This document shows positions 412 to 36,004 of a stretch of 36,398 nucleotides of DNA, piece after piece. This DNA comes from a virus: the UHGV virus genome UHGV-1395479; one strand, 5' to 3'. Within the stretch, counting starts at the first letter, position 1. Each line of letters opens with the position of its first letter. Under the pieces are notes generated by a model that worked only from the letters and a program-made list of their open reading frames with translations, made no database searches and had not been told where the DNA came from. The translations under genes and the position numbers were made by a program.

Positions 412-3400
412 TCAGCTAATCGTGATGCCTGCAGTGGCTTTCTTCATCACCACAACCAGCAAATCGCTGATACTTGCTGTGGGATACCAGTTATTTACCA
501 GCCATGCTGACACCGAAAACTCCAGTGTCATGTGACCGTGACCGGCAGGCATATCAATAACACCACTGTAAATCAGCGTATTATCCAGCGCGGTACGGTT
601 ATAAATTTCAGCACCGTTTTTCCGTACTATCAGGCGGCATGACGAATAAATATCGTTATTCTCCCGCTCATGTTTAGCGCCGCTGAATGCCACCGCCGGA
701 ATAACAATCTGCCGGTCAAACGGCTGATCGTCATAAACCCTGACGGTGATGGTCCCTGATGGCCACCGTTCCGGTGCACGGGAGTCCCGGGGGAAAGCTT
801 TGCCCACTGTTTTAACGAGATCGCCTTCAATCTGGTTGGCGGACAGTTTTCCCAGAACCCGACAGTTCTCGTTAATCGTGACGTTGTTGAGCGTCCCGGA
901 GTTCGCATTCACGTTACCGCTGATATCGGCATTTTTCGCCGTCAGCCGCCCGTCCGGTGTCAGGGAAAATACCGGAGGATTACCGCCGCTGGTAATGGTG
1001 GGAGCCGTCAGGCGTTTCAGGAACACTTCGTTCATGAATATCTGATCGCCCTGCCCAACAAACATCGGCTTTGTGTTGCCATTCGCAGGATTAATCATCG
1101 CAATCCTGTCTGCTGCCAGCAGCACCTGACTCTGCATGCCGTCAGGGGTGTTCTCAATACCGGCACCAATACCCGCGATATAAAGGCGTCCGTCCTGCAT
1201 CTGCTGCAGCTTCACAGCCCACATGCTGTTCAGGTTATTATTTGTATCAACCTGAACCTTCTGTATCTGCTGAATTGCCGCACTCTGGTCTTCCAGTTTC
1301 TTATTGACGGTCTGCGTGATTTCATTGCTGACATCCGTAATGGACGTCCTGATTTCAGCCAGGTCAGGCGCAAGCTGACCGTTATCAATCTGCGTCCACA
1401 GCTCCTGAGCCAGATGGGTTTTCCCTATCTCGCCTTTGAAAAAATCCAGATAACCGGATGCATCATCACTCGGCTGACCAACAGCCTCCACGAATGCCGA
1501 TTTGCCAACGGTGTTCACACTGCGGATATAAAAGTAATAATCATGGCCCGGTTTGATATTGATACTGGCGGCTATCCAGTACAGCGCCGTGCCAAGATAG
1601 CGTGCTGTGGTTTCAACCTGCCTGATATCCGCAATCCGCTTTTCCGAGAACCAGAACTCAAACTGTACCGTCGGATCATAAACCGCAAGATGCGGCGTGG
1701 CGGTTATCTGAAAATAGCCCGGCGTCAGCTCAATCCGCGACGGCGCTGCCGGTGCGGCAATCCGGAACGATACCGATGCCGGATCGCCCTGCTGCCCCCA
1801 CGCATTTACTGCCCGGACTGTCAGCCTGTAGTTCCCCAGCGCCAGTTGTGTGAAGCGGTAAGTGGTTTCCGTCGTCCGGGCCGTGCTGACCAGCCGCTCA
1901 CTGCCGTCATCCGCTGCCACGGTCAGGCGAAGCATAAAGCTCACCCCCTTCACCACCTTCGGCGTGTCCCAGCGCGCCAGCACCTGATATTCCCCGCTGT
2001 CTGCGGTGACTTCGGCAGTCAGGTGCTGCACCGCTGGCGGCGTGACACCATTCACCGTGCCACTCTGTTCGCCGTCAAAGTGCGCCCCGTTATCCACGAT
2101 GGCCTCTTTTTCCGGCACATGCTGCACGGCGGTGATGGCATACATGCCGTCGTCGTTTTCACGGATACTCACACAGCGGAATAGTCGCTGGCGCAGCGTC
2201 GGCAGCTTCAGCCCCCATACGCTGTATTCAGCAACACCGTCAGGAACACGGCTCACTTTTACCTTCACGCCGTCGGTGACGGACTGGACCTCCACGCTGA
2301 CCGGATTGCCACTTCCGTCAACCAGGCTTATCAGCGTGGTACCGGAGGATGGCAGCGTGATTTCACGGTCGAGCGTCAGCGTCCGGGTCTGGCTGTTCAC
2401 CGCCAGCACGCGCCCGCCGGTGCTGATACCGGCATAGTCATCATCGCAGATTTCAATGACATCGCCCGGTACATGGCGAAGCCCTTCAGCACCCACGCTG
2501 AAATCCACGGTCTGCGTCTCCAGCAGTTCCGTTTTAATCAGCCACAGCCCGGCGCGGTGTGCCTGCCCCCGGCTGGTACAGCCAAAGGCATCCATCTTCG
2601 TGACATTACGACCGTAACGGGCAATGGCCTGCGTATCTTCAACAAGCTCTGTCGCCGTCTCCCAGCCGTTGTTCGGGTCAATCCAGTTCACCTCAACGGC
2701 ATTATGGCGGTCCTTCAGGGCGCTGAAGCTGTAGCGGAACGGCGCGCCATCATCCGGCATCACCACATTACTGCGGTTATAGGTCCACACCTTATCCGAC
2801 GGTCGGTCCTGCACGAACGTCAGCGTCTGCCCGTTCCATACCGGCATACAGCGCATCGCCGAGCAGAAATCACTGAGCACATCCCACGCCTTACGCTGTG
2901 TGGTCAGCCAGGCATTACAGGTGATGCGCGGCTCCGTGCCGCCAAAACCGTCCGGCACCGACTGATCGCAATGCTGGCCGATGACATACAGCGCCCATTT
3001 GTCCACATCCGCCGCACCAAGACGTTTCCCCATGCCGTAGCGCGGATGGGTCAGCATATCCCACAGACACCAGGCCATGTTGTTGCTGTATGCTGGCTTA
3101 AACGTTCCGTCCCAGATACCGCTGTATTGCCGCGTCTGCGGGTTATAGTTCGACGGCACCTGCAGAATACGCCCGCGAAGATGATAATTACGGCTCACCT
3201 GCTGGCTGCCGAACTGCTCCGAGTCCACCTGTACGCCGACCAGTGCCGTGTTCGGGTAGCACTGTTTCACATCGATGATTTCGGTGTATGACGACCAGAG
3301 CGTTTTGTTCTGCAGCTGGTCTGTGGTGCTGTCCGGCGTCATCCTGCGCATCCGGATGTTGAACGGGCGCGGCGGCAGATTATCCACCACTACCGAGGCC

Positions 3401-3891
3401 AGATACTGCGAGGTGGTTTTGCCCTTAATGGTGATGTCTTTTTCCGTCACCCAGCCACCGTTACGCTGTATCTGAACCAGCAGGCGGACTTCCGACGGAT
3501 TCCGGTCCCCCTTTGAAGTGGTTTCCACCAGTGCCTGCACGCCGAAGGTAAAACGCAGTCGGTCGATGTTTGCCGACGTGATGGTCCGGGTGATCGGCGT
3601 GTCGTATTTCACTTCCGTACCCAGCACCGTCTCGGAGCCGGAGGATTCAAATCCCTCCGGCGGTGTCTGCTCCTGCTCACCGGCCCGGAACACCACCGTG
3701 ACACCGGAGATATTGGTATTCCCCTCACTGTCCAGCACCGGCGTACTGTTCAGCAGCACGCTTTTTAATCCGTCCACCGGACCTTCAATCGGCCCTTCGC
3801 TGATGGCGTCTATCACGCTCAGCATCTGGGATGATTTCAGGTTGTCCTTCGCTTCGCGCGGGGTATGCCCCTTACTGCTGCCTTTACCCAT
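412..3891 (-). CDS. J: Tail tip / host specificity protein J (central tail fibre)
   Basis: 1159-aa ORF; N-terminus [20 protein letters not shown]... and most of the length match lambda gpJ as recalled; last gene of the tail operon. Confidence 0.95.
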
Positions 3892-3951
3892 TCCTCACGC
3901 TCCATAAACGACAAAACCGCCCGCAGGCGGTTTCACATAAAACGTTTTTCA

Positions 3952-4623
3952 TCAACGACCAATCACCACAACCTGACCACCGTCCCCCTCGTCTGCCGTG
4001 CTGATCTCCTGAGAAGCCACCCGCGACCCCACGCGCATTTCACCGTACAGAACAGGCAGAACATTGCCCTGGGCAACCATGTTATCCAGTGAGGAGAAAT
4101 AGGTGTTCTGCTTACCGTTATCCGTTGTCTGTGTACGGGGAGTTCTGGCTTTCGGTGCCAGCATCTGGGCCACACCACCGAGCACCATACTGGCACCGAG
4201 AGAAAACAGGATGCCGGTCATACCACCGGCCCCAATGGCTGCCCCCCACGCTGCAAGGGTGGCTCCGGCAGTAAAGAATGATCCGGCAATGGCGGCTGCT
4301 CCCAGGACAATCTGGAATACGCCACCTGACTTGGCCCCGGCGACTCTGGGAACAATATGAATCACAGCGCCATCAGGCAGAGTCTCATGTAACTGCGCCG
4401 TTAACCCGGACGTGCTGACGTCCCGCCCGGCAATCCGTACCTGATACCAGCCGTCGCTCAGTTTCTGACGAAACGCCGGGATCTGCATGGCCAGCGCCCG
4501 GATGGCTTCGGCCCCCGTTTTCACACGCAGATCGATGCGGCGGCCAAATCGTTGTAAATCCCCGTAAAGGCAGATGCGTGCCATGCCTGGTGACGCCAGA
4601 GGGAGTGTGTGCGTCGCTGCCAT
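3952..4623 (-). CDS. I: Tail assembly protein I
   Basis: 223 aa, MAATHTLPLASPGMARICLYGDLQRFGRR... matches lambda gpI; C-terminal Gly/Ala-rich hydrophobic region. Confidence 0.9.
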   Translation of the reverse strand: MAATHTLPLASPGMARICLYGDLQRFGRRIDLRVKTGAEAIRALAMQIPAFRQKLSDGWYQVRIAGRDVSTSGLTAQLHETLPDGAVIHIVPRVAGAKSGGVFQIVLGAAAIAGSFFTAGATLAAWGAAIGAGGMTGILFSLGASMVLGGVAQMLAPKARTPRTQTTDNGKQNTYFSSLDNMVAQGNVLPVLYGEMRVGSRVASQEISTADEGDGGQVVVIGR

Positions 4624-5264
4624 TTGTCGGTGTACCTCTCTCGTTTACTCAGTTGTTCAGGAATATGGTGCAGCAGCTCACCGTCACCACAGTAAATGGC
4701 GGCATGATTCGGCACCGATGAACCAAAACAGCACAGCAGCACATCGCCCGGCTGCGCCGCTGACAACGGCATCTGATACAGCCCTGTGGCCTCCAGATTA
4801 TCCAGATAGAGATTCTGGCCGTGACGCCACCAGTCATCCTCACGATGAAAATCCGGCATCTCAATCCCCGCCAGATGGTAAGCATCCCGGAACAGCGTGT
4901 AACAGTCCGTCACACCGTGCTCAAAGCGCCGCCCGGTGAGATGCGGCACACAGCGGAACTTATGAATCGTCCCCCGGCAGACCAGCCACCAAGGCAAATC
5001 ACTCTGCACCTGCAGCCGCCGGTCGGCCTCACTCAGCCAGGGCAGACCACCGGGGTGGCTGTGGACCAGCGCCACAATCTCACCCTGCATCTCTGCCTGC
5101 AGCCAGTCTTCCGGCGACATACGGAAATACGCCTCCGGCTCACCGGAGATATTCACGCAGGGAAAATATCTTTCCCCTTCCGGCGTTCTCACCACGAAGC
5201 CGCACGACTCCGCTGGCGCACATCGCCGGGCGTGCGCCAGAATCGCTGATTCTGTCTCTGTCAT
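4521..5264 (-). CDS. K: Tail assembly protein K (JAMM/MPN plus NlpC/P60 domains)
   Basis: MTETESAILAHARRCAPAESCGFVV... matches lambda gpK; HSHPGG JAMM-type motif; 3' end overlaps I as in lambda. Confidence 0.9.
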   Translation of the reverse strand: MTETESAILAHARRCAPAESCGFVVRTPEGERYFPCVNISGEPEAYFRMSPEDWLQAEMQGEIVALVHSHPGGLPWLSEADRRLQVQSDLPWWLVCRGTIHKFRCVPHLTGRRFEHGVTDCYTLFRDAYHLAGIEMPDFHREDDWWRHGQNLYLDNLEATGLYQMPLSAAQPGDVLLCCFGSSVPNHAAIYCGDGELLHHIPEQLSKRERYTDKWQRRTHSLWRHQAWHASAFTGIYNDLAAASICV

Positions 5265-22793: not shown

Positions 22794-22988
22794 TCATTGC
22801 TGAAGGCGTCTGTAACAGCCGAACTGGTAATCTGCCAGCCCCGCCATAACCAGCTGGGTCAGTATTAACTGACAGCGTTCGCGTGAAAGGTATGTGTTTT
22901 GTGCTATCTCCCCGACTGTTGCCGGTTTGCCGTTTAATTCATTAAAAACAACTTTCGCCGTTTCTGTCATATCTTGCTGTTTTAGCAT
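22794..22988 (-). CDS. Small hypothetical protein (64 aa), possibly winged-helix-like
   Basis: ORF with AAGG-type SD upstream; sequence ..ATVGEIAQNTYLSRERCQLILTQLVMAGL.. resembles small HTH proteins; no confident family. Confidence 0.35.
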   Translation of the reverse strand: MLKQQDMTETAKVVFNELNGKPATVGEIAQNTYLSRERCQLILTQLVMAGLADYQFGCYRRLQQ

Positions 22989-23111
22989 GTCTTTTTACCT
23001 TCATGGTTAACATGACATACCAATAACTCTTGTCTAAAAAGCCAGCAAGATAAAAAGTCAGTATTCACGACCACCAGCGTGTTTACCGTACTGCACCAGG
23101 TTTACAGGTAT

Positions 23112-23137
23112 AAAAAAACCCGCTCGACGGCGGGTTT
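23112..23137 (-). terminator. Rho-independent terminator (minus strand), candidate tR'-like or early-operon terminator
   Basis: GC-rich hairpin CCCGC..GCGGG (23119-23134) preceded on plus strand by A7 (23112-23118), i.e. followed by U7 on the minus-strand transcript. Confidence 0.65.
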
Positions 23138-23258
23138 AAGCTGTGTGACGAAGTAATCACTCTTAACACAGTAACGCAATTTTTGCGGACCGCGATAATG
23201 TTTTTTACACCAAAAAAAGGTATTTTATGGAAAAAAATCAAGACATAGCGAGCAAAGA

Positions 23259-24128
23259 GTGACTAAAACAACTTCTTTTCAGATCTTCTACGATGCAGAG
23301 GATAATGAATTAGCACAGCATAAAATTGATGCCAAAACATTAAGCATTTCCATAGGTTCGATGGCAGATTTAATATCAGCAGCTGATAAAAGACTTAATG
23401 ACGGCCAACAAACCGTTAAGTTAATGGTTACTAATCCAGCTGAAGCGGGATCACTCGGCGTATCCTATACGATGATGGAGCTTGTTCCTCATGCCGTCGA
23501 CGTAGCAAAAGTGATTGGCCTAACAGGGATAGCCGGGGCTACTATTGGAGCTCCAGCATTATCACTAATCCGCCAACTGGGCAGCAAGAAAGTAATTTCG
23601 GTAACAAAACGGGCAGGAACAGAAGAATCTGTTCTTGAGCTTGAAGGGGAAGAAATTGTTTGCCATGACTCAGTGGCTAAGTTAGTAACAGATCCAGAAG
23701 TCCGTGATGCCCTTGTGAATGTAGTTCGTGCACCATTAGACGGCAAACAAGGAGCAGTATTTAAGGTGCTGAATGATGAAGGCGAAGAAGTCGTTCGTCT
23801 TGAAGGAAGTGAAACCGAAGAGATCAAACCGCTGCCTAGAGGCACACTACTTGAAAAAGAAGAGTCTGTAGAAGAAGTCAATGTTAGATTCGTACAGATC
23901 AACTTCGAGGGTACAAAGGGTTGGAGAATCGATTATTTAGGCGAAGAGCATGCTGTTACCTTTGAAGATCAGTTGTTTATACACCAAGTTCAAAACGGAA
24001 TCATCAGTTTTACAAAAGAAGATTTGTTTGTTGTTGAGCTAAAAACTATAAAAACTTTCACTGCGCGAAATGCCACAACCAAGTATGCTATAACCAAAGT
24101 AAAACGAAAACGCCCTGCTGAGGCTTGA
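23259..24128 (+). CDS. Hypothetical protein A of an opposite-strand three-gene moron operon (289 aa)
   Basis: GTG start at 23259; long ORF on plus strand amid minus-strand phage genes; AT-rich; acidic, with one hydrophobic Gly-rich stretch (VIGLTGIAGATIGAPALSLI); no catalytic motif recognised. Confidence 0.7.
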   Translation: MTKTTSFQIFYDAEDNELAQHKIDAKTLSISIGSMADLISAADKRLNDGQQTVKLMVTNPAEAGSLGVSYTMMELVPHAVDVAKVIGLTGIAGATIGAPALSLIRQLGSKKVISVTKRAGTEESVLELEGEEIVCHDSVAKLVTDPEVRDALVNVVRAPLDGKQGAVFKVLNDEGEEVVRLEGSETEEIKPLPRGTLLEKEESVEEVNVRFVQINFEGTKGWRIDYLGEEHAVTFEDQLFIHQVQNGIISFTKEDLFVVELKTIKTFTARNATTKYAITKVKRKRPAEA

Positions 24129-24394
24129 CAAAAGTGACACTAAACATGCAGATAGCACAACTGATCTTCTGGATAGGGGTGATAATGATCATCCCTGCCT
24201 TTAGTCGTTTTTGCTATTCAGCGTCAGCCTTGCTTTGGCGTCGACTATTCCCTACAAAAGTCTTCGAATTCCGATATCACGATGAAGATTCCGGAGTGAC
24301 CAAAACGCTAGTAATAAAAGTTCCAAGTAAAAAGGGAAAAATGCTAACAACCCTCATTGATGAGGCAATTGCGGAGAATTCAAAACGAAAATGA
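24125..24394 (+). CDS. Small membrane protein B of the three-gene operon (up to 89 aa, one predicted TM)
   Basis: Start overlaps stop of A (TTG 24125; alternative GTG 24134 or ATG 24146); hydrophobic stretch IAQLIFWIGVIMIIPAF; stop overlaps start of C. Confidence 0.6.
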   Translation: MTKVTLNMQIAQLIFWIGVIMIIPAFSRFCYSASALLWRRLFPTKVFEFRYHDEDSGVTKTLVIKVPSKKGKMLTTLIDEAIAENSKRK

Positions 24395-24813
24395 ATTCTC
24401 AAACTAAAGGTCTAAGCACAGGAAAAGCTACCCTTTCAACTGGTGGTTGGGGAGCAATTTTAAGTGTTCTTGTTAGCGCGATTTTAACCGACCCTAATAG
24501 CGTGTGGCGAACTGTAGCCTACGCATTAGTACCGGGTGTTGCGGCAACTTTAACTTACGTCATGAATTGGTTCATTTCGAGGCATGGTTTCGAATCTCCA
24601 GAAGACGCAGCCAAAAGAGCAAAATGCAAGCGTGATTTGGCTGAGATTGAGAAGCAGTTACGATCTGACCACTTAAGTCCTGAAATAAAATCAACATTGA
24701 TGCAGGCTAAAGCAAGAACAATCGAAATTTTGGTATCAATCGGAAGGGAATCTATACTTGAAACATCTGCGCGTAACATTACACCATCAAAAACTGCCGA
24801 TCCGCAAAGCTGA
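24391..24813 (+). CDS. Membrane protein C of the three-gene operon (140 aa, two predicted TM segments)
   Basis: ATGA start/stop overlap with B at 24391-24394; hydrophobic segments GGWGAILSVLVSAILT and VAYALVPGVAATLTYVMNWFI; charged helical C-terminus. Confidence 0.7.
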   Translation: MNSQTKGLSTGKATLSTGGWGAILSVLVSAILTDPNSVWRTVAYALVPGVAATLTYVMNWFISRHGFESPEDAAKRAKCKRDLAEIEKQLRSDHLSPEIKSTLMQAKARTIEILVSIGRESILETSARNITPSKTADPQS

Positions 24814-24836
24814 GCGGCAGTTGCTATTCTGGTAGT

Positions 24837-25217
24837 CTATTGGTCCATTTCCAAACAAAGATCAAGCATTGAGAGACAGCCTTCAATAAACCCCTCAGCC
24901 ATCTGTATCTCAATGCGTATTAGTTTCTCATCCTTTTTACGAGCTTTGGCGAGCTTTCTTTTAGAGATACCGTATAGGTAATGGGCAACAAGAAGCGAAT
25001 GTTCGTCTGGCCTTTTTTGCTTTAGACGAGCAAGACAACCTTCAATAATTAATGCATCACTATCTGAACAAGCCTGACGTGTTTTGCTTGTATAGGGAAG
25101 AAGTCCCTTAAACCCAGCAGCTATAGGCGAATAGTCTACTCCTGAACTGTCACTCGCCGCCCATGCACCCCAACGTTCAAGAACCATTTGAATATCACGC
25201 ATCAACTTTCTCCACAA
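24837..25217 (-). CDS. Q: Late-gene antiterminator Q (small QuuD/phage 82-type family)
   Basis: 126 aa; MRDIQMVLERWGAWAA... resembles my recollection of DLP12 QuuD; last gene of early-right operon, upstream of lysis cassette. Confidence 0.75.
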   Translation of the reverse strand: MWRKLMRDIQMVLERWGAWAASDSSGVDYSPIAAGFKGLLPYTSKTRQACSDSDALIIEGCLARLKQKRPDEHSLLVAHYLYGISKRKLAKARKKDEKLIRIEIQMAEGFIEGCLSMLDLCLEMDQ

Positions 25218-32253: not shown

Positions 32254-33078
32254 ATGTCTCAGAACTTAGACGCAACCGCAATTAATCAAATCCATGCCCT
32301 TATTTCTGCTCAGGGTGTTAATGAAATTATCAGTAAGATTGGTGCCGATGCTGTGGCATTGCCTGAGAATTTCCGCATTCATGATCTGGAAAAATTTAAT
32401 TTAAATCGCTTCCGTTTCCGTGGTGCGCTTTCCACTGCCAGCATCGATGACTTTACCCGTTATTCTAAAGATCTTGCAGATGAAGGCACCCGCTGCTTTA
32501 TCGATGCCGATAATATGCGAGCAGTCAGTGTGCTTAACCTGGGTACTATTGATGAACCAGGTCACGCAGATAACACCGCCACTCTCAAACTGAAAAAGAC
32601 AGCACCGTTCTCTGCCCTGTTGTCTGTTAACAGCGAGCGTAACTCCCAGAAGTCACTGGCAGAATGGATTGAAGACTGGGCCGACTACCTTGTGGGCTTT
32701 GATGCTAATGGTGACGCTATTCAGGCAACAAAAGCGGCTGCGGCGGTCCGTAAAATCACGATTGAAGCAAACCAGACCGCTGATTTTGAAGATAATGACT
32801 TCAGCGGCAAACGCTCCCTGATGGAGTCTGTCGAAGCGAAGACCAAAGATATTATGCCAGTGGCATTTGAATTTAAATGCGTTCCGTTTGAAGGTCTGAA
32901 AGAACGTCCATTTAAATTACGCCTCAGCATTATCACTGGCGATCGTCCGGTACTGGTTCTGCGCATTATTCAGCTGGAAGCGGTGCAGGAAGATATGGCT
33001 AACGAATTTCGTGATCTGTTTGTTGAGAAATTCAAAGACAGCAAAGTAGAAACCTTTATTGGTACTTTCACCGCCTGA
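32254..33078 (+). CDS. YfdQ-like protein (DUF2303 family), 274 aa
   Basis: 274-aa ORF followed by an HD-domain gene, matching the yfdQ-yfdR arrangement of E. coli prophage CPS-53 as recalled. Confidence 0.5.
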
Positions 33079-33205
33079 TTTCATTACTGCAAATGCCCCT
33101 GCGGGGGCATTTATGGAAACGTAATTGACTCAATAATCGCCGGACGGTGAGGGCTTCCTTTTACCCGAATTCAGCGCGGTGCAGCGCATATACGTGGAGA
33201 ACAAA

Positions 33206-33754
33206 ATGTCATTTATTAAAACTTTTTCCGGGAAGCATTTTTATTATGACAGGATAAATAAAGACGACATCGATATTAACGATATCGCGGTTTCCCTTTC
33301 AAATATCTGTCGCTTTGCAGGACATCTTTCACACTTCTACAGCGTCGCCCAACATGCGGTGCTTTGCAGCCAGCTGGTACCGCAGGAATTTGCTTTTGAA
33401 GCGTTAATGCATGATGCAACAGAAGCGTATTGCCAGGACATCCCGGCTCCACTGAAACGCCTTCTTCCTGACTATAAACGGATGGAAGAAAAAATAGACG
33501 CCGTAATCCGTGAGAAATACGGGTTACCCCCGGTTATGAGTACACCCGTGAAATATGCCGATCTCATCATGCTGGCAACCGAACGCCGCGATCTCGGGCT
33601 TGATGATGGCTCTTTCTGGCCTGTGCTGGAAGGTATCCCGGCAACAGAGATGTTCAACGTGATTCCACTGGCACCGGGCCATGCCTACGGGATGTTTATG
33701 GAACGCTTTAAAGAGCTGCATAAGATACATAAACAATCCAGACAGCGAAATTAA
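33206..33754 (+). CDS. HD-domain phosphohydrolase (YfdR-like 5'-deoxynucleotidase)
   Basis: HD motif region ..HLSHFYSVAQHAVLCSQ..ALMHDATEAY..; start set at internal Met 33206 (MSFIKTFSGKHF..); maximal ORF begins at 33179. Confidence 0.7.
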   Translation: MSFIKTFSGKHFYYDRINKDDIDINDIAVSLSNICRFAGHLSHFYSVAQHAVLCSQLVPQEFAFEALMHDATEAYCQDIPAPLKRLLPDYKRMEEKIDAVIREKYGLPPVMSTPVKYADLIMLATERRDLGLDDGSFWPVLEGIPATEMFNVIPLAPGHAYGMFMERFKELHKIHKQSRQRN

Positions 33755-34043: not shown

Positions 34044-35154
34044 AAATAATGTTTCAGTCCCGAACTTGTATCCGCTTTATAGCAGAAAAGTAAATAAAGT
34101 CTATTGGCGATATAAACATCCAGTGACCGGGAAGTTTCATTCTTTAGGCACAAACGAAGCTGAAGCCATTGCTATTGCCACTGAGGCAAATTCACGCCTG
34201 GCTGAGCAAAGAACCCGGCAGATTCTGGCTATCAGTGACAGGATCGCAACCAGCAAAGGAAAAGCAATCACAACGTCAACCTGGTTAGATCGCTATCAAG
34301 CAATCCAGGATGACAGACTGGAAAGTGGCGATATAAAGCTCAACACCTATAAACAGAAAGCCAAACCAGTATCCTTGCTCAGGGAACGAGCAGGAATGAA
34401 ATTAATTTCATCAGTTGATGTAAGGGATATAGCACAATTGCTTGACGAGTATATCACTGCCGGGCAACCGAGGATGGCGCAAGTAGTCCGCTCCGTTCTA
34501 ATTGATGTATTCAAGGAGGCACAACACTATGGGGAAGTCCCTCCGGGCTATAATCCTGCACTGGCAACCAAACAACCCAGAAGAAAAATTACCCGACAAC
34601 GGTTAAATCTTGAAGAGTGGCAAAAAATCTTTGATATTGCAGATGCCAGTCATCGTTATATGGGGAATGCCATGCTGTTAGCACTGGTTACCGGCCAACG
34701 GTTAGGTGATATCTCACGTATGAAATTTAGCGATATTTGGGATGATCATCTTCACGTCATCCAGGAAAAAACCGGGAGCAAAATCGCCATCCCGCTTTCT
34801 CTGCGCCTCAATGCGATTAACTGGAGTTTGCGCGATGTAGTAGCCCGTTGCCGTGACTATGCTGTCAGCCCATACCTTGTACATTTTTTTCGTACTACTT
34901 CACAGGCTGAACGCGGCGCACAGGTTAAAGCCAATACCTTGACTATGAATTTCAGTAAAGCAAGAGATTTAGCAGGAATTGATTGGGGGAAAGGTTCACC
35001 TGCCACATTCCATGAACAACGGTCTTTATCTGAACGTCTGTACAAAGAACAGGGGATCGATACTAGAAAGCTACTGGGCCATAAAACCCAGCAGCAAACA
35101 GATCGCTACCATGATGACCGAGGGAAAGATTGGAGTAAAATAGCTATAATTTGA
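34024..35154 (+). CDS. int: Tyrosine integrase (lambda Int family)
   Basis: 376 aa; lambda Int-like throughout, including ..FHEQRSLSERLY.. and catalytic-Tyr region LLGHKTQQQTDRYHDDRGKDW. Confidence 0.95.
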   Translation: MAARPRKNNVSVPNLYPLYSRKVNKVYWRYKHPVTGKFHSLGTNEAEAIAIATEANSRLAEQRTRQILAISDRIATSKGKAITTSTWLDRYQAIQDDRLESGDIKLNTYKQKAKPVSLLRERAGMKLISSVDVRDIAQLLDEYITAGQPRMAQVVRSVLIDVFKEAQHYGEVPPGYNPALATKQPRRKITRQRLNLEEWQKIFDIADASHRYMGNAMLLALVTGQRLGDISRMKFSDIWDDHLHVIQEKTGSKIAIPLSLRLNAINWSLRDVVARCRDYAVSPYLVHFFRTTSQAERGAQVKANTLTMNFSKARDLAGIDWGKGSPATFHEQRSLSERLYKEQGIDTRKLLGHKTQQQTDRYHDDRGKDWSKIAII

Positions 35155-36004
35155 CTCTTGTAGGATCCATATCATCAGGAATAGAAATGCTATCACAAAA
35201 AAAGATTACTTCTGGCCCTTGGTACCTAGATTGAGCACTATAGCTGATACCGTACTCAATTTTTCTAAGACCAGTGTACATGTTGTTTATTTCAACAGTA
35301 TTATCGTAAGATACAATCCATGGATGCTTTGAATTAGATTTTATAATATTAGCAATTTCGACATGATCATCATGACTATAATGGTTTTGATACAAGCCCT
35401 TTCCTTTAACATAATATGGAGGGTCAAGATAAAGCAATGTTTTTAATGGGAATCCAGTTACAGTATTTTGCAAGAATGATTTAGCATCTTGGTTATAGAT
35501 ACAAATATCAGATTTACGGTCTGCTATTACCTTAATACGGTTTACTAAATCAACCTTATTAAATCGAGCATCTATTTTCCATTTTCCATTTTGTTCCTTA
35601 CCACCAATTACACCACCTAACAAAATTCCTGACCGATTTGTTCGATTAAGGAAAAACGTAGCGAATCCAACTTCCAATGAGGAATAATCACATTGATTAC
35701 TAATGATATTTTTATTCTTATACCATTCATCCATATTCACAGGGGTTTTTTCAATTAATTGGCAAAACTGATCAGTTTCTTCTAGAATTGACCGCCAAAA
35801 ACAAAAAATGGCGTTATTAAGATCGTTTAAATGTATACGTGATGCTTTCCCAGACAAAAGTAAATTAATGGCTACTCCAGCACCACCAGCATACGGCTCA
35901 ACATATTCGCAACCATCTAAACCATTGATCATAATGATCTTTGATAGATAGTTAGTTAATTTACCTTTACCACCAGGATACCGTAATGGGGTGCTGAATC
36001 TCAT
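35144..36004 (-). CDS. Dam-like (D12 class) N6-adenine DNA methyltransferase
   Basis: 286 aa; N-terminal motif I VEPYAGGAGVAINLL and C-terminal LYLDPPYY; very AT-rich; its stop overlaps the int stop (convergent). Confidence 0.8.
   Translation of the reverse strand: MRFSTPLRYPGGKGKLTNYLSKIIMINGLDGCEYVEPYAGGAGVAINLLLSGKASRIHLNDLNNAIFCFWRSILEETDQFCQLIEKTPVNMDEWYKNKNIISNQCDYSSLEVGFATFFLNRTNRSGILLGGVIGGKEQNGKWKIDARFNKVDLVNRIKVIADRKSDICIYNQDAKSFLQNTVTGFPLKTLLYLDPPYYVKGKGLYQNHYSHDDHVEIANIIKSNSKHPWIVSYDNTVEINNMYTGLRKIEYGISYSAQSRYQGPEVIFFCDSISIPDDMDPTRVKL

Follow-up and report, generated by a model that had tools for sequence, protein, structure and literature searches.

Among described defence systems and candidates, the closest in sequence to the three-gene cassette studied here (genes A, B and C of the virus genome UHGV-1395479, whose 36,398 nucleotides of DNA are together referred to as the window) is PDC-S42 (Payne et al. 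2024, PADLOC-DB v2), one of a series of candidates, the PDCs, that were predicted because the genes lie within loci of BREX, DISARM or type I restriction-modification (RM) systems (10.1101/2024.01.29.577857). Protein A matches PDC-S42 over its full length, as do all 43 of the diverse A-family members that we compared with it. Whereas PDC-S42 is catalogued as a single gene, here, and in relatives as distant as those on Pseudomonas megaplasmids, A is followed by two genes for membrane proteins. On balance, we infer that A, B and C most likely form a lysogen-expressed, inner-membrane-associated anti-phage system that acts by abortive infection or exclusion.

The closest functional analogy is with RexAB of phage lambda, which is likewise prophage-borne and consists of a soluble protein of about 280 amino acids (aa) followed by a small membrane protein (144 aa for RexB, 140 aa for C), and whose proposed logic of a cytoplasmic component with membrane partners would be shared by the cassette. 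In addition, a distant A homolog (locus L049) directly follows a CI-like repressor gene, as rexAB does. The likeness does not extend to homology (hhalign probability 1.4% for RexA versus A and 0.5% for RexB versus C), and the layouts differ: RexAB comprises two genes in the immunity region, whereas the cassette comprises three between the antiterminator gene Q and what is probably the late promoter PR'. RexB is described as a multi-pass protein, and B and C have fewer hydrophobic segments. Another comparable arrangement is Rst_2TM_1TM_TIR, reportedly described from P2/P4 hotspots by Rousset et al. 2022, with three genes that are said to encode a protein with two transmembrane (TM) segments, a protein with one TM segment and a soluble protein; the likeness is one of architecture only, and none of A, B and C matched either the PADLOC models of that system or the TIR domain in Pfam.

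In its position, the cassette resembles the Q-proximal morons, such as the lc/nmpC porin gene of PA-2/DLP12, which are also cargo beside Q and, in the case of the porin, likewise convergent with it, but the genes are different. The stx genes lie downstream of PR' and depend on Q, whereas the cassette would precede PR' and separate Q from the promoter on which it acts. With the Q21-type late cassette, the window shares a Q of family PF06530, but the probable PR' unit is not immediately downstream of Q here.

Gene A, its family and the two membrane-protein genes that follow it

The window is a lambdoid prophage of Escherichia coli in which the genes from tail to replication lie nearly all on the minus strand. 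A 1.9-kb query was found at 100% identity in several complete genomes, and the cassette was found in 31 of 5,426 complete E. coli genomes. As a preliminary description of this DNA had proposed, A, B and C are three plus-strand open reading frames (ORFs) convergent with Q (coordinates in Table 1). Together they form a self-contained cargo cassette, or moron, that spans about 23206 to 24836. The same description had portrayed the cassette as an AT-rich block; its GC content is indeed low (41.9%, versus 52.3% for the whole window), but because Q is also AT-rich (43.1% GC) and the methylase gene has 48.9% GC, the block has no boundary at Q.

The trio (protein sizes of 287-308, 78-88 and 130-140 aa) is syntenic in prophages of Klebsiella, Serratia and Edwardsiella, in metagenomic contigs that are unassigned and have other genes around it (L015 and L016; A 37% identical) and on Pseudomonas megaplasmids of the pBM413 type (A 32.5% identical). 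Across these syntenic trios, A identity ranges from 32 to 92%, and throughout the A-B-C clade B and C come after A without exception. In comparisons with relatives whose A proteins are 89-92% identical, synonymous sites were near saturation and non-synonymous change was rare, with ratios of non-synonymous to synonymous divergence (dN/dS) of 0.02-0.03 for A, 0.08-0.12 for B and about 0.05 for C. Judged by these substitution patterns, A, B and C are genuine coding genes under strong purifying selection, and the constraint on A is unusually strong for a cargo gene. The three are also conserved and co-inherited. Between the window and one relative (L035, 8001-8870), the A proteins are 92% identical, with a synonymous divergence (dS) of about 2 and a dN/dS of 0.02. 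RefSeq annotation by PGAP includes A and C and omits B (two genomes inspected). A 288-aa gene upstream of A in L015 was considered as a paralog of A and proved not to be one.

Protein A is acidic and, as first described, has one hydrophobic, Gly-rich stretch (residues 79-104, KD19 1.64). The preliminary description had recognized no motif in A and had treated the module as undescribed, with no named system to match. The first of these statements is true for Pfam, in which a scan of A returned no match, but not for PADLOC, NCBIfam and PHROG, and the second does not stand: A belongs to PDC-S42 (model PDLC05015; E 8.2e-33, with residues 4-287 aligned to profile positions 3-292 of 302), to NF053583 ('LAPAL motif-containing putative phage structural protein'; E 1.3e-59, with a score of 202 bits where the curated cutoff is 60) and to phrog_3243 (a phage/prophage family of unknown function; E 3e-60), and an identical protein is listed in a published table of predictions. 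The LAPAL motif, which distant members carry in the form ...DVRxLAPALLAI..., is degenerate in the window protein, which has IDAKTLSISIGSM at the aligned position. Eight of 43 distant members match DUF7946 (PF25678) through their N-terminal part (best E 2e-8), and A of the window does not. By an exhaustive profile search, the A family comprises 1,881 clusters at the 50% identity level, whose members are full-length and have about 290-300 aa, and in a survey of species genomes its distant subfamily was found in Burkholderiales, other Gamma- and Betaproteobacteria, Melainabacteria, Desulfobacterota and Candidate Phyla Radiation (CPR) lineages.

A confident AlphaFold2 (AF2) model of A (pLDDT 81, pTM 0.64) has three alpha/beta regions, with a low-confidence loop inside the hydrophobic stretch. 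The hydrophobic segment (residues about 79-107 in A) is kept in all 43 diverse members and in solo homologs; it spans some 22-25 residues, many of them small (Gly/Ala), and a basic 'LKGR'-type motif comes after it. Polar positions conserved across the family are D12, H21, G64-S65, R149, W222 and D237, and a hydrolase triad drawn from D12, H21, S65 and D237 was considered and dropped because these residues have no nucleophile-elbow context. Searched against the Protein Data Bank (PDB), the predicted structure of A had no significant match, and a profile search against PDB sequences gave chance-level matches only (E of at least 0.17). A search of BFVD returned a DUF6575 protein at E 6e-9, yet with a TM-score of about 0.3.

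The TM-like segments first described in the other two proteins, one in B and two in C, were likewise confirmed. B (pI 9.8) consists of a strong N-terminal TM segment (KD19 2.01 at residues 1-19) and a short basic C-terminal domain, and orthologs of 78-88 aa lie downstream of A in each of the settings named above (Klebsiella, Serratia, Edwardsiella, L015/L016 and pBM413). In C, the hydrophobic N-terminal half is predicted to form two helices and gives way to a helical, coiled-coil-like C-terminal region (AF2 helices at 18-31, 38-65, 70-90 and 97-129, with a pLDDT of only 58); the juxtamembrane motif of C, YxMNWxISRHGxESPEDAAKRAKCKRD, is highly conserved in an alignment of 17 homologs. According to the positive-inside rule, B and C would both have their soluble parts in the cytoplasm. 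Scans of B and C against Pfam, PADLOC, PHROGs and NCBIfam returned nothing significant.

Of the start/stop overlaps proposed earlier, the one between B and C (ATGA, 24391-24394) recurs in homologous loci. The one between A and B was not upheld: TTG 24125, the start that overlaps the stop codon of A, is absent in two relatives (L044 and L048), and A and B are therefore closely spaced without overlap. The conserved start candidates of B lie 5-17 nt past the stop of A and are a GTG with GAGG 11 nt upstream and an ATG that agrees with the N-terminus of distant orthologs. The leader ORF noted in the preliminary description is present in the window but lineage-specific (window, L002 and L035 only); L044 and other genera lack it, and their A starts from an ATG, with an N-terminus of the form 'MEK/MEQ..TTSF'. 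The leader opens with ATG-GAA-AAA, the same codons as the A start in other genera, and 32 extra nt (23236-23267, an out-of-frame insertion) stand between ATG-GAA-AAA and ACA-ACT-TCT. The leader is thus probably a relic of the ancestral A start that was displaced by the insertion, with A now re-initiating at GTG.

Defence predictions and the neighbourhoods of A homologs

Two computational methods, independent of each other, have marked the A family as defensive. One led to PDC-S42; the other, DefensePredictor (PMC13092281), lists a protein identical to A (WP_021549515.1) under 'Predicted novel defense gene' (Table S10, mean log-odds 5.78), and the protein is absent from its tables of tested systems. 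PDC-S42 was not located in the supplements of the PDC paper (10.1101/2024.01.29.577857).

Thirty diverse loci were surveyed around A homologs. Among the neighbours are MADS components, PARIS-like ATPases, SoFic, PDC-S04, RM genes of types IIG and III and DrmD of DISARM, as well as integrases, PIN, Fic and AbiEii-like ATPase genes and genes of Mu-like prophages, with no neighbour family recurring in more than three of the 30. Among individual distant homologs, one adjoins integrases, PIN and Mrr (L050), and others lie beside toxin-antitoxin (TA) pairs of the HigBA type or Gp49/HTH (L052-54). As far as gene content can tell, this mixed, mobile and conflict-rich context of solo A homologs is typical of defence genes. 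An ORF with a TM segment lies directly downstream of A in only 2 of 78 distant-subfamily (solo) loci, the other 76 having none; since most family members are solo genes, A may be a self-sufficient core, and B and C an accessory elaboration of one gammaproteobacterial clade. The preliminary description had likened the trio to a sensor with membrane effectors, a division of roles that A, B and C may or may not have.

The TA pairs beside distant homologs would also fit an addiction module that stabilizes the prophage in the manner of a TA system, with A or the membrane proteins as the toxic component and another component neutralizing it, so that a cell that lost the prophage would die, as would the tight coupling of small genes, the frequency with which membrane proteins are toxins and the patchy spread on mobile elements. 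We regard such a module as improbable: most A-family members are solo genes without a possible antitoxin partner, and no similarity to TA families was found in Pfam, PADLOC or NCBIfam. It is also only partly a rival of a defence function, given that TA and abortive-infection functions overlap.

The cargo slot between Q and the PR'-like block

The preliminary description had regarded the cassette as opposite-strand cargo adjoining Q, and relatives agree with it: the content of the slot differs among related prophages whose Q (named 'antiterminator Q family protein' by PGAP) is 90-94.5% identical to that of the window, and all of the cargo lies on the opposite strand to Q. On the right, where C and Q are 23 nt apart, a relative with a 94.5% identical Q is homologous only as far as window position 24842, which falls just within the stop codon of Q; on the left, homology to the same relative resumes at about 23205. 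Alternative occupants (Table 1) include a KAP-family NTPase, which has weaker matches to PifA and QatA, and proteins without a PADLOC match. Two of the cargo types come from isolated functional phages (cdtI and PhiR40_1), and in one related prophage (L057) the slot is empty.

In the textbook order of late regulation, the Q gene is followed by PR', the Q-binding element (QBE), a sigma-dependent pause element and a terminator (tR'). The conserved block that forms the left border of the slot has the pattern AAAAATCAyTAACGCGGTCCGCA, about 10-15 variable nt, TAAyGTGTTAAGAGTGGTyACTTCGnCACACAGCTTA, a hairpin (23116-23137; -12 kcal/mol, z -2.55) and a T-run; this hairpin is the minus-strand terminator that had already been placed just beyond the 5' end of the operon, and Rfam gave only a sub-threshold Trp-leader-like match over it. 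The block is kept in all seven of the loci aligned, from E. coli, Klebsiella, Edwardsiella and Serratia and with three different cargoes, and a single copy of its core pattern is present in each of 40 among the 60 loci compared; every pattern-bearing locus whose gene content was examined has a Q of PF06530. In the window, the block is 1.6 kb from Q, and only in the cargo-less L057 does it abut Q, beginning 13 nt past the Q stop codon (3394-3434). For the Q21/Q933W family, which corresponds to PF06530, the QBE is a direct repeat (10.1101/651190), and the block contains TGTTAAGAG/TGGTTACTT, at a spacing of 10 nt. No PR' hexamers could be assigned in the block by a sigma-70 scan. Because the block is conserved whatever the cargo and adjoins Q where there is none, we read it as a probable PR'-QBE-pause-tR' unit, with the cassette inserted between Q and its target promoter; this position would put the cassette outside the late transcript. 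Directly downstream of the terminator lies a 64-aa ORF without a Pfam or PADLOC family, which is conserved as the first gene past the terminator in many lambdoid phages (Ayreon, cdtI and PhiR40_1).

At the other end of the cassette, the hairpin between C and Q folds well on both strands (plus strand, -18.7 kcal/mol, z -3.26; minus strand, -19.3 kcal/mol, z -2.67). It is likely a bidirectional terminator that ends the operon as well as transcription from Q, and that would thereby insulate the cassette.

Such a position bears on whether A, B and C could serve the phage itself, as a virion or structural protein or as a regulator of lysis timing beside the lysis cassette. This would be in keeping with the name of NF053583, with phrog_3243 being a phage/prophage family, with the proximity of holin and endolysin genes and with the similarity of B and C, as small membrane proteins, to holins and antiholins, but we consider it highly improbable. 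The genes lie opposite to all late genes and upstream of the predicted PR', and late transcription would therefore not read them; no A homologs were found by tblastn in 50,697 sequenced phage genomes, and homologs sit on non-phage plasmids and in chromosomal islets, so that the label 'phage structural protein' is not supported for A. Moreover, in cdtI and PhiR40_1, which are functional phages and closely related, the slot is filled by genes that bear no relation to A, B and C, and in some prophages by none at all.

Table 1. Features of the window and alternative occupants of the cargo slot in related loci (positions in the window unless a locus is named).
Feature	Position	Strand	Details
64-aa ORF	22794-22988	-	Directly downstream of terminator
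PR'-like conserved block	23111-23205	-	Ends in intrinsic terminator; left border of slot
Leader ORF (MEKNQDIASKE)	23227-23262	+	11 codons; stop overlaps GTG of A (GTGA)
Gene A	23259-24128	+	GTG start; 289 aa; acidic, pI 5.1
Gene B	24134-24394	+	82-86 aa; start GTG 24134 or ATG 24146
Gene C	24391-24813	+	140 aa; ATG overlaps stop of B (ATGA)
C/Q hairpin	24792-24822	both	First arm is last codons of C; minus-strand side followed by TTTTT
Q antiterminator, Q21/Q933W family	24837-25205 (PGAP) or 24837-25217	-	PF06530, E 3.3e-53
CI-like repressor gene	30431-31123		
Genes between CI-like repressor and integrase, including one for a DUF2303 protein	32254-33754	+	DUF2303, E 3e-91
D12-class adenine methyltransferase gene	35144-36004	-	286 aa; PADLOC PD-Lambda-5_B, E 1.9e-121
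Slot cargo: KAP-family NTPase	L024 3619-4950; L055 2119-3450	opposite to Q	PADLOC PDC-S20, E 9e-177
Slot cargo: 313 + 147/149-aa pair	L059 (phage cdtI, orf54/orf53) 3580-4968; L056 2026-3438		No PADLOC match
Slot cargo: 339-aa unknown protein	L023 3950-4969		No PADLOC match
Slot cargo: 148-aa unknown protein	L060 3760-4206		Isolated phage PhiR40_1

Elsewhere in the window, the adenine methyltransferase gene lies just beyond the integrase gene and matches PD-Lambda-5_B, the methylase of a two-gene PADLOC system, whose partner gene would fall outside the window, beyond its end. Between the genes for the CI-like repressor and the integrase, the stretch that encodes the DUF2303 protein also has a weak YfbR-like 5'-deoxynucleotidase match, and neither protein has a PADLOC match.

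A candidate membrane-associated anti-phage system

The defence reading draws together the PDC-S42 match, the DefensePredictor score, the KAP NTPase as alternative cargo of the same slot and the defence and mobile genes that neighbour A homologs. The defence or exclusion module suggested by the preliminary description is thus the best-supported reading of the cassette, although its novelty had been overstated. In the mechanism that we propose, the resident prophage would express the cassette in the lysogen, and A would sit on the cytoplasmic side of the inner membrane, kept there by its Gly/Ala-rich segment, by B and C, or by both. On infection by another phage, the complex would then compromise the membrane (abortive infection) or, alternatively, block an envelope-associated step of the invader (exclusion). 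Lysogen expression, an association of A with the membrane and any step of sensing or killing are features that we infer.

Several observations weigh against a defence function of this kind. The PDC-S42 and DefensePredictor calls are both computational, and our searches of the literature for PDC-S42, the LAPAL motif, DUF7946 and the protein accessions found no mention of them and turned up no experimental study. A simple sigma-70 scan gave only chance-level candidates for an operon promoter. In the AF2 model, the hydrophobic segment of A forms a helix-loop-helix within a soluble-looking protein, which makes membrane insertion of A speculative. Many neighbours of distant A homologs are housekeeping genes, and a porin occupies the slot, convergent with Q, in the DLP12-type arrangement, so that slot cargo is not exclusively defensive.

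The last two of these points would also suit a lysogenic-conversion module, with A, B and C changing how the envelope or membrane of the host works (in stress tolerance, transport or colonization), much as the lc/nmpC porin and bor/iss are lysogenic-conversion genes of lambdoid prophages; that B and C are membrane proteins, and that none of A, B and C has a defence-type enzymatic domain, would fit as well. We nevertheless think lysogenic conversion unlikely, given that the A family occurs near RM, MADS, PARIS, TA and integrase genes and was found through guilt-by-embedding, that DefensePredictor calls the exact protein A defensive, and that a distribution over many phyla and over plasmids, prophages and islets fits a conflict system better than a niche-specific host trait.

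A more far-reaching form of the anti-phage reading, which we put forward only tentatively, is that A-B-C is a mechanistically new system, in which A would be a self-contained, membrane-active immune protein with the Gly/Ala segment as its effector, B and C would be clade-specific membrane adaptors, and the gap between Q and PR' would serve as an insulated site reserved for defence cargo that the lysogen expresses. New here are the three-gene architecture, the unannotated gene B and the precise Q-to-PR' cargo slot, whereas A was already known as a catalogued computational defence candidate.

If the cassette protects lysogens, PDC-S42 would turn from a computational candidate into a validated defence family, one that spans about 1,900 clusters (at 50% identity) without a match to any solved structure. 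The 'single-gene' PDC-S42 would then prove to exist also as a set of three genes in which A has membrane partners, and of these B is missed by current annotation. Whatever the function of A, B and C, the slot between Q and the late promoter in Q21-type Enterobacterales prophages is a place to mine for defence genes, and prophages that combine the same Q with different cargo provide isogenic-like natural variants for experiments.

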